Shown: positions 60,222 through 62,459 of the stretch, in pieces
Numbering within the stretch: the stretch's first letter is position 1
Layout of the letters: the number at the start of each line of letters is the position of its first letter
Source: an uncultured Candidatus Saccharibacteria bacterium
Lineage (GTDB): Bacteria; Patescibacteriota; Minisyncoccia; Phycocordibacterales; DATDWN01
Direction: 5' to 3'
NCBI GenBank assembly: GCA_964469605.1
Contig: CAYXZA010000003.1
Location: 3,721 to 67,720 of the forward strand
DNA: 64,000 bases
Program-made: the position numbers and the translations under genes
The notes under the pieces: model-generated
What the model was told of the DNA's origin: nothing
Database searches by the model: none
The model's input: only the letters and a program-made list of their open reading frames with translations

Positions 60222-60290
60222 GGGAGATCGTCTAATGGTAGGACACAAGGTTTTGGTCCTTGGTATCGGGGTTCGAGTCCCTGTCTCCCA
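60222..60290 (+). tRNA. tRNA-Gln (anticodon TTG). CCA is not encoded.
   Basis: Acceptor gggagat/gtctccc. Anticodon stem caagg/ccttg with loop ttttggt. T arm cgggg-ttcgagt-ccctg. Confidence 0.8.
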
Positions 60291-60347
60291 GCAAAGCTAG
60301 AAGCGAAGCGAAAGCTTTGCTTGGAGAAGCAAATTGAAAATTTGCGT

Positions 60348-60464
60348 CAGGGACGAGAACGGTTTGCCGGTCTACGAAGTCAGCAGACTTTGTCGGCAAA
60401 CCGGTGCCCAGAATTTTTCTCGCGACGGCGAGAAAAATTCGAAGGAGAGTCCCTGTCTCCCAGC
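60348..60464 (+). other. tRNA-Gln trailer element. It has the anti-T-arm motif cagggacgagaac, a long covarying hairpin, and a duplicate of the tRNA 3' end.
   Basis: gagtccctgtctcccagc (60447-60464) is identical to 60275-60292. ggtctacgaagtcagcagactttgtcggc (60369-60398) is flanked by the helix ggtttgccgg/cggcaaacc. Confidence 0.45.
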
Positions 60465-60475
60465 CAGCTTGAGAT

Positions 60476-61027
60476 ATGTTTGGAGTTCGAGGAACCTCAA
60501 ACTTTAAGAATATGGATTTAAAAGAAGAAATTAAAAAACACACATCAGAGGTCAGAGGTTTACCAATATGGATTCAGTGGGGTGTTGCCGTTGCAACTAT
60601 ATTTGGAACGATCTTCGGTGGTTGGGGTGTTTATATTGTTCTAACCCAAAATGAACCAATTGTAGTGCCAATAACTTCGAGTGGTGAAAATGTATCAAGT
60701 ACTCCAAGTCTTTCGGACATACTTTCAAAAGCGTTAGCATTAGAAACAGTTATTGAGAGGCAGGATTTTCTTAACAAATACAAAGACAGTGTCGTGCGCG
60801 GAGAAGGAACTGTCGAGGAAGTAAGTCGCTCGGGAAGTGGTTTCTTAGTTGATATTAAGGTTGTTGGACAAACAATAACTTGCTCTCAAGAATCAAATGA
60901 AAATATCGAGAAACAGCTATTACTTCTCCAGAACAAGAAAGTCCAATTTTATGGAAAATTCCCATTCACAAACATATTTGGGCACGGGCTAGCAATTGAT
61001 GATTGTGTCCTCTCGCGTATCCAATAG
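60476..61027 (+). CDS. Hypothetical membrane-anchored protein (island gene 1). The start is possibly at 60512.
   Basis: 183-aa ORF with one TM helix (LPIWIQWGVAVATIFGTIFGGWGVYIVL). ~40% GC. No recognised family. Confidence 0.35.
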   Translation: MFGVRGTSNFKNMDLKEEIKKHTSEVRGLPIWIQWGVAVATIFGTIFGGWGVYIVLTQNEPIVVPITSSGENVSSTPSLSDILSKALALETVIERQDFLNKYKDSVVRGEGTVEEVSRSGSGFLVDIKVVGQTITCSQESNENIEKQLLLLQNKKVQFYGKFPFTNIFGHGLAIDDCVLSRIQ

Positions 61028-61491
61028 ATTTATTCCGAGGAGTATCAAAATTTATGAAAAAAGTAACAAACAAGGAATCGGGTAATTCAGGGGAGCAAGA
61101 GATTGTTGATCTTGTTCCGTGTCCGAATTGTGGTAAGAAACTAATGAAGCTCCCACCAAACTATCCTTTGTATGATGTTCAGTGCACGGGCTGTTCATTT
61201 CGTGCTCAAGTAAAAACAAATCATAGTGAGCCCAAGGCTGTAGTTTTTGGTGCTGGATGGCAAATAATGAATAAAGTATTGAAGTCGGGGTATATGACAC
61301 CACCATTGTTTTTGAATTTTAAGTGGTCTGAAAAAGGTACAGTAAAACAAGAAGTAAGATTTTATCCATTTGTTCCCAAAAAGAATCTTTCTAATTATCG
61401 TCTTTCTGAAACAGCTAGGCGGGCAAATTATGAAATGTTTACTTACACAGGAATGGACAAACTCCCATATTTTTTAGTTCATAAAAAATGA
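61003..61491 (+). CDS. Hypothetical zinc-ribbon protein (island gene 2). The likely start is 61054.
   Basis: CPNCGKK...CTGCSF (CxxC...CxxC) zinc ribbon is followed by an uncharacterised ~100-aa domain. Confidence 0.4.
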   Translation: MCPLAYPIDLFRGVSKFMKKVTNKESGNSGEQEIVDLVPCPNCGKKLMKLPPNYPLYDVQCTGCSFRAQVKTNHSEPKAVVFGAGWQIMNKVLKSGYMTPPLFLNFKWSEKGTVKQEVRFYPFVPKKNLSNYRLSETARRANYEMFTYTGMDKLPYFLVHKK

Positions 61492-62186
61492 GTAAAATTC
61501 AGAATGACATTTTAAGCTACCGAGAGATGTGCGATGTTGAAAAAGTCCAGACGCTTCAGCGTGGTATGAATTTTAGAATGAAACCGACCTATTCTGTCAT
61601 TCTTATGTCCCAGAGATCAAATGCGCCATATCAAGACAAGATCCATGAAGATGGAATAACTATTGAATATGAAGGACATGATGTTTCTAAGAGAGCTCAT
61701 GACCACAACCCAAAGATTGAAGATCAGGCCGAAAAATTACCTTCTGGTCGACTAACTCAAAATGGGTACTTCATAAAAGCCGCTAAGGATTACAAAGAAA
61801 GTGGTACCACACCAGAATTGGTAAAAGTCTACGAAAAAGTATTTCCGGGCGTATGGTCAATGAAGGGATTTTTTGATCTTGTAGATTACAAGATCGTAAA
61901 TGATGGAAAGAGAAACGTCTTTCGCTATATTTTAAGACTCTCTGATCGTAGTGAGATCTCTACAAGTATTACAAAAAATATTGAGCATACGCGTCTAATA
62001 CCCTCAGGTGTAAAAAGAGAAGTTTGGAAACGAGATCAAGGAAAATGTGTTATCTGCGGGGATGATAAGAATTTACACTTCGATCACGATTTACCATTTT
62101 CAAGAGGTGGAACCAGTCTATCAGTAAAGAATGTTCGATTGCTTTGTATAAAACACAATCTCCAGAAGTCAGACAAAATTGAGTAG
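61488..62186 (+). CDS. SRA(YDG)-like modified-cytosine-binding domain fused to an HNH nuclease. This is the domain architecture of modification-dependent (type IV) restriction enzymes.
   Basis: N-terminal segment YSVILMSQRSNAPYQDKIHEDGITIEYEGHD parallels the SRA core (SIVLSGGYEDDVD.G..F.YTGSGG). C-terminal HNH motif: CVICGDDKNLHFDHDLPFSRGG...NVRLLCIKHNLQKSD. Confidence 0.6.
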   Translation: MSKIQNDILSYREMCDVEKVQTLQRGMNFRMKPTYSVILMSQRSNAPYQDKIHEDGITIEYEGHDVSKRAHDHNPKIEDQAEKLPSGRLTQNGYFIKAAKDYKESGTTPELVKVYEKVFPGVWSMKGFFDLVDYKIVNDGKRNVFRYILRLSDRSEISTSITKNIEHTRLIPSGVKREVWKRDQGKCVICGDDKNLHFDHDLPFSRGGTSLSVKNVRLLCIKHNLQKSDKIE

Positions 62187-62459
62187 ATAAAGTCGTTCCG
62201 AGGAGCTTCGAAATGATAGAACAAAAGTAACAAAAAAGACTTGTGGGGCTTGATAGGTAAATTTACGAAACCGAAGTGTCCAGTAAAGCCACAAGTGAAG
62301 CGAAAGCTTTGCAAGGAGGTGCAAATTTAAATATTTCATCTTCGAAAACTATATGTGTTTTTTTATGATACAATCAAAATGTTATTAATAAAATTTATAT
62401 AGGATTTTACAAACCATTACAATGGATTTAGTTTTAAGATTTAAGTGAGTTAAATAATC

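Follow-up and report, generated by a model that had tools for sequence, protein, structure and literature searches.

The window considered here is a stretch of 64 kb (64,000 nucleotides) from a contig of an uncultured Candidatus Saccharibacteria bacterium (CAYXZA010000003.1), and its subject is the segment that follows a tRNA-Gln gene and carries three genes, designated P1, P2 and P3. A preliminary description of this DNA had presented these genes as a possible three-gene variant of a modification-dependent restriction system. According to the present analysis, with a probability of about 0.6, positions 60467-62285 belong to a cassette array whose anchor is the 3' end of tRNA-Gln, and comprise two gene cassettes and not one three-gene system; cassette 1 would be formed by P1 and cassette 2 by P2 and P3, joined by a 4-nt overlap. 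The novelty is the cassette context at tRNA-Gln, not a new three-component defence system. The features of the segment are as follows.

60221..60292, forward strand: tRNA-Gln (anticodon UUG), found by ARAGORN and by the Rfam tRNA model (58.4 bits), which anchors the cassette array.
60293..60466, forward strand: structured non-coding unit (minimum free energy -80.9 kcal/mol, z = -8.0; covariance model R1).
60467..60511, forward strand: degenerate cassette leader (CAGCTTGAGATATGTTTGGAGTTCGAGGAACC...), homologous to the leader TTTGAGATAGGTTCGGACTCCGAGGAGC of other genomes.
60512..61027, forward strand: P1, 171 aa, consisting of an N-terminal helix, a single transmembrane helix, a linker modelled with low confidence and an OB-fold domain at the C terminus.
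61028..61053, forward strand: collapsed P1/P2 junction, of which only TCCGAGGAGT plus a spacer remains; the full junction is present in another genome (locus L087).
61054..61491, forward strand: P2, 145 aa, which is nothing but a catalytic domain of the DpnI type (PD-(D/E)XK), with a Cys4 zinc site and the motif E14...D41...Q52-V-K54.
61488..62186, forward strand: P3, 232 aa, with an N-terminal domain of predicted SRA fold (about residues 1-160) followed by an HNH nuclease at the C terminus (about residues 170-232).
62192..62285, forward strand: cassette end element, TCCGAGGAGC... ...ACGAAACCGAAGTGTCCAG (nhmmer 82 bits, E 1e-23).
62280..62340, forward strand: right copy of the flanking repeat (repeat search and sequence).

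The start of P1 is most likely ATG 60512, because the resulting 171 aa matches independent gene calls for the identical protein P0241. All three open reading frames (ORFs) lie on the forward strand and are co-directional as described earlier, but the overlap attributed to the whole set is true of P2 and P3 only (4 nt, ATGA), and 26 nt separate the P1 stop from the P2 start if P2 begins at ATG 61054. The GC content is 0.375 over the cassette coding segment, about 0.285 in the flanking genes and 0.325 in the whole window; the insertion-like, GC-richer segment reported next to the tRNA-Gln 3' end at about 40% GC was therefore recovered (0.388 over the range originally given). The 16-mer GAAGCGAAAGCTTTGC brackets the segment as had been stated, with exactly two exact occurrences in the window, at 60305 and 62297, and it is the core of a longer direct repeat (61 nt, 79% identity, 60288-60348 versus 62280-62340), the left copy of which begins within the 3' end of tRNA-Gln. 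Neither GATC nor CCWGG is depleted within the window, and therefore the site frequencies give no clue to host methylation.

Linkage of the three genes was evaluated by tblastn in 84 loci (each designated below by L and a number) fetched with P3 or P2 as seed, which together with the window make 85, and later in 22 loci seeded with the leader. No P1 came up in any of the 85 loci or of the 22. P2 lies directly upstream of P3 with the ATGA overlap in the window, in L083/L084 (P3 identity 94%), in L017 (88%) and in L069 (86%), that is, only in the closest relatives of P3 (86-94% identity), whereas about 50 other full-length P3 loci, L016 with 90% identity included, are without P2. Conversely, all three independent contexts seeded with P2 are without P3; a P2 homologue has no downstream nuclease in L010, is followed by a PDDEXK_1 nuclease gene in L012, and by a 186-aa ORF and a GIY-YIG gene in L014. 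In L069 (6001-6291) a P3 shortened to about 78-96 aa follows an intact P2, which suggests that P2 is able to persist without P3. Since P1 is absent and P2 mostly absent from P3 loci, the three-gene system is unsupported, while the mobile P2-P3 pair is supported; the check proposed earlier, for co-occurrence of the transmembrane and zinc-ribbon genes with SRA-HNH genes, showed genes that are largely unlinked elsewhere, and the two upstream genes are not supported as partners in one module.

The idea of a three-component variant defence system, with the membrane and zinc-ribbon proteins as partners of the SRA-HNH enzyme, is thus most improbable, despite the fact that the genes are co-directional, closely spaced and all located between one repeat pair. 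In addition to the above counts, P1 homologues sit with other cassettes, and the one in L087 has its own complete junction (end element and leader) and is followed by methyltransferase cassettes and not by P2-P3. Furthermore, in L017 an unrelated 127-aa protein is encoded between the tRNA-Gln region and P2, and in L083 the leader leads straight into P2, with a small GIY-YIG gene upstream, across the tRNA.

P1 itself is a rare orphan that belongs to a separate cassette. It has no family match in Pfam, PADLOC, PHROG or NCBIfam, and its family counts only 11 homologues among 5.8 billion proteins. The C-terminal part of about 105 residues was modelled by AlphaFold2 (AF2) with a predicted local distance difference test score (pLDDT) above 80 as a confident OB fold, for which Foldseek returned the OB fold of class IIb aminoacyl-tRNA synthetases and that of Stn1/Ten1. 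The closest homologue on a contig long enough to read (74%; L086/L087) follows dnaX and tRNA-Gln and stands ahead of Dam-like and N6/N4 methyltransferase genes, and another one (L089) is placed between a T5orf172 gene and a methyltransferase. At L086 5591-8060 and from L087 5756 onward the slot of P2-P3 is taken by this cassette of Dam-like (MethyltransfD12) and N6/N4 methyltransferases, so that the same slot in related genomes holds an adenine methylase in one case and a DpnI-like methyl-adenine reader in the other.

The last gene, P3, is supported as an SRA-HNH protein with the known type IV restriction architecture, where HNH is recognised by sequence and SRA by predicted fold only; in this form the modification-dependent architecture proposed earlier stands. 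The HNH domain was matched in PHROG (6e-9) and in Pfam by HNH_5 (19.9 bits) and HNH (18.8 bits), both slightly below cutoffs, and it corresponds to the HNH domain of IscB in NCBIfam and PDB. Among 38 homologues C187, C190, H200, N215, C220 and N224 are invariant and H223 is nearly invariant, the catalytic His/Asn and the Cys and His ligands of zinc in the beta-beta-alpha-metal fold being in place. Of the two domains named earlier, profile searches supported HNH but not SRA, which is assigned from an AF2 model built with the 38 homologues (pLDDT 70.8 in 1/5 models). At a probability of about 1.0, Foldseek against PDB related this model to ScoMcrA (5zmm), the SRA domain of SUVH5 (3q0c; template modelling score 0.63-0.67 on target), MspJI, AspBHI and the SRA domain of UHRF1, which corresponds to the SRA (PUA-superfamily) fold. 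Outside HNH no PDB sequence match was obtained for P3 with either the single sequence or the 38-sequence profile.

SRA-HNH proteins are a characterised type IV family, represented by TagI, ScoA3IV/Sco5333 and TbiR51I, and the characterised enzymes act alone (PMC6212794, PMC4333417, PMC6765204). Like P3, they combine an N-terminal SRA-fold sensor with a C-terminal HNH in a single small polypeptide encoded by a stand-alone gene in defence neighbourhoods; unlike them, P3 shows no recognisable resemblance in sequence to the Pfam family of SRA or to any SRA-HNH chain of known structure. The described family comes mostly from GC-rich Actinobacteria and Proteobacteria (PMC6765204), whereas the P3 family, with more than 7,900 homologues (the top 120 at 73-100% identity), is dominated by Patescibacteria and has relatives of 46-55% identity in Planctomycetota, Nitrospira, Acidobacteria and Mycobacterium. 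In this way a very large, sequence-divergent Patescibacteria clade joins the known SRA-HNH restriction enzymes. P3 can be considered autonomous because it is found without P2 or P1 beside unrelated neighbours, which elsewhere include MazG-like and SLFN-type helicase/S24-peptidase genes, HEPN AbiU2, Fic and ASCH. Probably, P3 acts as a self-sufficient type IV enzyme, in which SRA would flip out and bind a modified cytosine (5mC/5hmC type) and HNH would cut nearby, destroying incoming modified DNA.

Regarding individual P3 neighbourhoods, an ASCH-domain gene shares one cassette with P3 in L001 (5001-6115), and MazG-like and SLFN-type helicase/S24-peptidase genes lie upstream of P3 in L004 (2326-5699) and L007 (2595-6384), with HEPN AbiU2 or Fic downstream. 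A viral collection contained one partial P3 relative only (48% identity) and no leader motif, and neither a full-length P3 nor P2 was found among PLSDB plasmids; a phage or plasmid vehicle is unsupported by these searches.

P2 had been regarded as a zinc ribbon with an unknown C-terminal domain and as an uncharacterised accessory protein; both parts together make one DpnI-type catalytic domain (PF06044), and P2 by itself can be recognised as a nuclease domain of the DpnI type. The match to PF06044 reached 38.6 bits at a cutoff of 26.7 and covered profile positions 31-144 of 183; P2 also matches PADLOC mREase_II (2e-6) and aligns with the DpnI structure PDB 4esj. The type IIM enzyme R.DpnI (Gm6ATC-dependent, PF06044) shares with P2 the PD-(D/E)XK domain with an unusual Cys4 zinc site, the upstream Glu, Asp and Lys, the guanine-contacting Asn, and the methyl-cleft Leu, Arg and aromatic residue. 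The counterparts taken from the 4esj alignment are listed below, with conservation determined in 121 homologues and DpnI residue roles according to PMC3424567 and PMC4117772.

DpnI E25, P2 E14: upstream catalytic Glu, conserved.
DpnI D53, P2 D41: catalytic, conserved.
DpnI E64, P2 Q52: Gln in 121/121 homologues.
DpnI K66, P2 K54: catalytic, conserved.
DpnI Cys4 zinc site, P2 C23, C26, C44 and C47: invariant.
DpnI N48, P2 N36: guanine contact.
DpnI L129, P2 L117: methyl cleft.
DpnI R135, P2 R123: methyl cleft.
DpnI W138, P2 Y126: methyl cleft.

The cleft residues L117, R123 and Y126 are invariant or nearly so, and the methyl cleft of DpnI is in this sense preserved; natural DpnI homologues carry Tyr or His at the W138 position, and engineered W138 substitutions keep partial activity (PMC4117772). 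The catalytic set E25/D53/E64/K66 is incomplete in P2 owing to Gln at the E64 position. The second difference from R.DpnI is the absence of the C-terminal winged-helix domain, which in DpnI serves as a second readout and aids DNA binding by the catalytic domain (PMC4117772): P2 ends at residue 145, and its 1,630 homologues are all 143-150 aa long. These proteins define a winged-helix-less, Gln-variant clade of the DpnI type. P2 is considered autonomous because it is found without P3 in three different contexts. It probably represents a separate DpnI-like module that would read N6-methyladenine in a GATC-like site via the cleft formed by L117, R123 and Y126, and that, with Gln at the second acidic catalytic position, may or may not cut. 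Together P2 and P3 would cover both adenine-methylated and cytosine-modified invaders.

Alternatively, P2 and P3 may be one two-subunit modification-dependent enzyme with P1 as a bystander, where a catalytically weakened DpnI-type P2 would recruit or license the SRA-HNH enzyme, or the two strands would be nicked by one subunit each. Four genomes retain the 4-nt ATGA overlap, a reader role would suit the invariant Gln52 that stands where DpnI has a catalytic Glu, and P2 homologues stand directly before other nuclease genes in L012 and L014. However, this explanation is unlikely in view of the about 50 full-length P3 loci without P2, the P2-seeded contexts that are without P3 in 3/3 cases, the P2 without a downstream nuclease in L010, the truncated P3 beside an intact P2 in L069, and the solitary action of the characterised SRA-HNH enzymes cited above.

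The two-cassette organisation is further indicated by the position of the genes and by their boundaries. A same-strand tRNA-Gln is present less than 2 kb upstream of P3 in the window, L001, L017, L023, L026, L031, L069 and L083, with dnaX usually upstream of tRNA-Gln; given one or two tRNA-Gln genes per genome of about 1 Mb, this placement is far above chance. Nine genomes have P3 a short distance downstream of tRNA-Gln within an array of short cassettes. The P1 homologue in L086/L087 is preceded by tRNA-Gln as well. Extra copies of the tRNA 3' end occur between tRNA-Gln and the cassette genes. In the window the tRNA-Gln 3' end (60275-60292) is repeated exactly (18/18) at 60447-60464, which had been overlooked in the preliminary description, and a degenerate copy lies at about 62268-62284; the repeated pattern is present also in L017, L031, L069 and L087. 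Direct repeats of the tRNA 3' end thus bound units located 3' of an intact tRNA, as is characteristic of tRNA-targeting element arrays.

A leader and an end element, both conserved, would mark the boundaries of the cassettes, and the end element contains a degenerate tRNA-Gln 3' end. The end element of about 95 nt starts with TCCGAGGAGC right after the stop codon and finishes with ...ACGAGACCGAAGgGGTCAGCCAG, the degenerate tRNA-Gln 3' end, which also terminates the window copy. It is conserved after five different cassettes, the window element having been aligned with those after four others. Matches were obtained by nhmmer after P3 (window, L017), after HEPN-like and 129-aa genes (L083), after a TPR gene (L026), after P1 (L086/L087), after the P3 and ASCH pair (L001) and at further sites, those in L017 and L001 being non-seed matches. 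The leader TTTGAGATAGGTTCGGACTCCGAGGAGC...ATG (about 30 nt) opens the next cassette, either after tRNA-Gln or after cassette ends; the metagenome scan for the leader, which gave the 22 loci, placed it directly after tRNA-Gln in L093, L100 and L101 and elsewhere after end elements. The cargo of leader loci is heterogeneous (GIY-YIG/DUF4357-RAMA, Imm5-like and many unknowns), and non-nuclease cassettes share the same end element and leader. Within the window TCCGAGGAG has two exact copies only, at 61034 and 62197, both at cassette junctions, and a general ribosome-binding motif of the genome was rejected as its explanation.

Several details of the end element deserve mention on their own. Its start consists of TCCGAGGAGC, a spacer and a mini-ORF of 3-5 codons (for example, ATG ATA GAA CAA AAG TAA), as seen at 62197-62232 in the window, at 4345-4380 and 5002-5030 in L083 and at 5527-5560 in L087, and this start is similar to the beginning of P2 (ribosome-binding region plus initial codons), with which it forms a direct repeat (61034-61085 versus 62197-62250). 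An attC-like hairpin was rejected for this element, as RNAalifold gave only -4.8 kcal/mol with little covariation.

The cassettes would be exchanged between Patescibacteria genomes at the tRNA-Gln site. A foreign origin is indicated because the GC content of the cassettes is 0.375 against 0.285 in the flanks and because a pseudo-tRNA-Gln of another lineage type is found in L083. This pseudo-tRNA-Gln is nearly full-length (2371-2463) and lies right after the resident tRNA-Gln; in its T arm (GGGGTTCGAGTCCCTG) it agrees with tRNA-Gln from the lineages of the window and L069 and not with that of L083 itself, which suggests that the P2-P3 cassette may have come into L083 with a piece of the donor tRNA-Gln. 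Small GIY-YIG genes (83-119 aa) recurrently flank tRNA-Gln or sit in cassette arrays (L083 2054-2413 and 5126-5377; L095 7336-7677 and 7862-8125; equivalents in L104 and L106), one ORF crossing the tRNA gene, and are candidate mobilising nucleases.

It is also conceivable that P2 and P3 are selfish homing-type nucleases that cut cassette-free tRNA-Gln alleles, with defence being a side effect or absent. Such behaviour would agree with the 73-94% identity across different Patescibacteria lineages, with the recurrent placement at one site and with the small GIY-YIG genes at tRNA-Gln in L083, L095, L104 and L106. Nevertheless SRA and DpnI-type domains are modification readers and not long-site homing specificities, P3 also occurs away from tRNA-Gln in typical defence neighbourhoods, and the end element and leader are carried by non-nuclease cassettes too, so this explanation is even less probable than a two-subunit enzyme.

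The proposal of two exchangeable cassettes with autonomous readers should be balanced against the following observations. The conserved P2-P3 translational overlap is also expected of a two-subunit enzyme. No integrase or transposase appears in the precomputed Pfam lists of L001, L083 and L086 (the other genes of the window were not scanned), and the mobility mechanism is one that we infer from anatomy only. No empty site was obtained from a close relative, exact-sequence look-ups of P3 and of the downstream methyltransferase having matched no contig. The SRA assignment of P3 depends on a medium-confidence model, the other 4/5 AF2 models reaching a pLDDT of about 41-46, and residues 1-165 match no Pfam profile at E<=1, SAD_SRA included. 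Finally, the invariant Gln52 at the position of DpnI Glu64 may indicate that P2 is not a nuclease; at the same time TnsA of Tn7, a PD-(D/E)XK enzyme that has Gln at the same position, is active, and therefore Gln alone is no proof of P2 inactivity.

Two known types of array are comparable with the cassettes at tRNA-Gln. Integron arrays likewise consist of short co-oriented cassettes of one or two genes, apparently promoterless, with recurring non-coding separators and one anchor site. They differ in the intI-type recombinase, which was not seen nearby in the three precomputed lists mentioned, and in the attC-type hairpin and attI anchor, in place of which the junction here is conserved in sequence, with pairing conserved only weakly, and the anchor is a tRNA 3' end. 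Tandem integrative elements at tRNA genes (tycheposons of Prochlorococcus and cis-mobilisable elements) are similar in the partial tRNA 3'-end copies that separate the units, in the co-orientation of units downstream of an intact tRNA and in the variable conflict-related cargo. In contrast to tycheposon-type arrays the units described here are tiny (0.1-2 kb), lack an integrase (none of P1, P2 and P3 is a recombinase), possess the conserved end element and leader, and are in some cases gene-free and structured.

The gene-free type is represented by the unit at 60293-60466, a segment of 0.506 GC that the preliminary description passed over; the 16-mer of that description is a part of the unit. 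The unit consists of hairpin 1, which holds GAAGCGAAAGCTTTGC, a 5' arm complementary to the 3' strand of the tRNA acceptor and T stem, a small hairpin, two long hairpins and the 18-nt copy of the tRNA 3' end; the R1 match extends over 60318-60466 with 127 bits. The right-hand repeat at 62280-62340 is the start of a truncated structured unit: it comprises a degenerate tRNA 3' end and the first 55 nt or so of the unit (hairpin 1 and the start of the 5' arm) and then diverges.

Units of this kind are not restricted to tRNA-Gln. In the window the tRNA's own 3' 16-mer recurs once or twice downstream of 5/9 tRNA genes (Thr, Glu, Leu-UAG, Tyr and Gln), with a spacing of 129-207 nt, and the corresponding tRNA-linked structured units (about 130-210 nt each) are located as follows.

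6831-6959, forward strand.
26399-26605, reverse strand.
31031-31988, reverse strand.
40490-40854, forward strand.
60293-60466, forward strand.

The sequences of the units differ while their architecture is common, and the shared order is the terminator hairpin of the tRNA, the 5' arm (reverse-complementary to the 3' strand of the cognate acceptor), a small hairpin, a segment reverse-complementary to the T stem and T loop, two long hairpins and the tRNA 3' end. Covariance model R1 detected five strong copies in the window and further copies in other genomes after tRNA-Gln (L069, L087), tRNA-Ala (L016) and tRNA-Asp (L098), while Rfam at permissive E-values returned tRNAs only in 59500-63000 and in the L031 array. 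Covariation was evaluated in an alignment of 11 sequences fitted to R1 and concerns the two inner hairpins only, as MAFFT failed to align the outer (acceptor-like and T-like) helices: 92.8% of cells pair versus 39-56% with slid partners, 17/19 pairs are changed on both sides, and the observed values were reached in 0/500 shuffles. The same alignment contains 11 G-T and no A-C pairs, and according to this asymmetry the structure is favoured in the tRNA-sense strand. Two other identities were considered and rejected: a tmRNA-like or permuted tmRNA piece, for which the sole support was a sub-threshold match of 15 bits, and an antisense tRNA gene, since the reverse-complement alignments are short and gapped beyond the T arm and the wobble pairs favour the tRNA-sense strand.

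Taking cassettes and units together, it can tentatively be suggested that Patescibacteria carry an undescribed integrase-less cassette-capture system at tRNA 3' ends, accompanied by covarying structured units in the tRNA sense. Such a system would consist of short cassettes, many of them with defence or conflict genes, each carrying the end element of about 95 nt followed by the conserved leader, and of units of about 130-210 nt, the 5' arm of which would be the reverse complement of the cognate T loop, T stem and acceptor 3' strand and the 3' end a copy of the tRNA 3' end. The structured units could be a recombination or targeting determinant (a site of the guide-like or folded-strand type) or else RNAs of a new class that mimic tRNA. 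The defence finding by itself puts little at stake, and the cassette junctions and tRNA-linked units matter more, with the mechanism being inferred: these ultra-small bacteria with genomes of about 1 Mb appear to swap ready-made cassettes of one or two genes at tRNA genes by way of conserved junction sequences and with no visible recombinase, and their tRNA genes are also furnished with a structured, covarying element for which Rfam has no match. If either of the two is a true mobility or targeting device, it would explain the diversification of defence in these organisms and could reveal a new mechanism of site-specific recombination or RNA mimicry.

Individual tRNA loci show further variation. 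The second unit after tRNA-Leu(UAG) (31031-31843, reverse strand, 813 nt) contains a 79-aa ORF of no Pfam family (31479-31718, reverse strand) followed by a complete structured element, that is, a cassette-like gene with a structured end at a non-Gln tRNA. In L031 (5308-5848) three tandem units of about 175-186 nt lie between tRNA-Gln and P3, each with a terminator-like hairpin first and the tRNA 3' end last; they belong to a different sequence subtype and are undetected by R1. The copies of the tRNA-Tyr 3' end at 40496-40513, 40678-40697 and 40859-40876 are each followed by a bidirectional terminator-like hairpin, and this region holds nine terminator-like sites in 800 nt versus 0.5 expected; in the alternative phase each tRNA-Tyr unit looks like a small gene with its own terminator.

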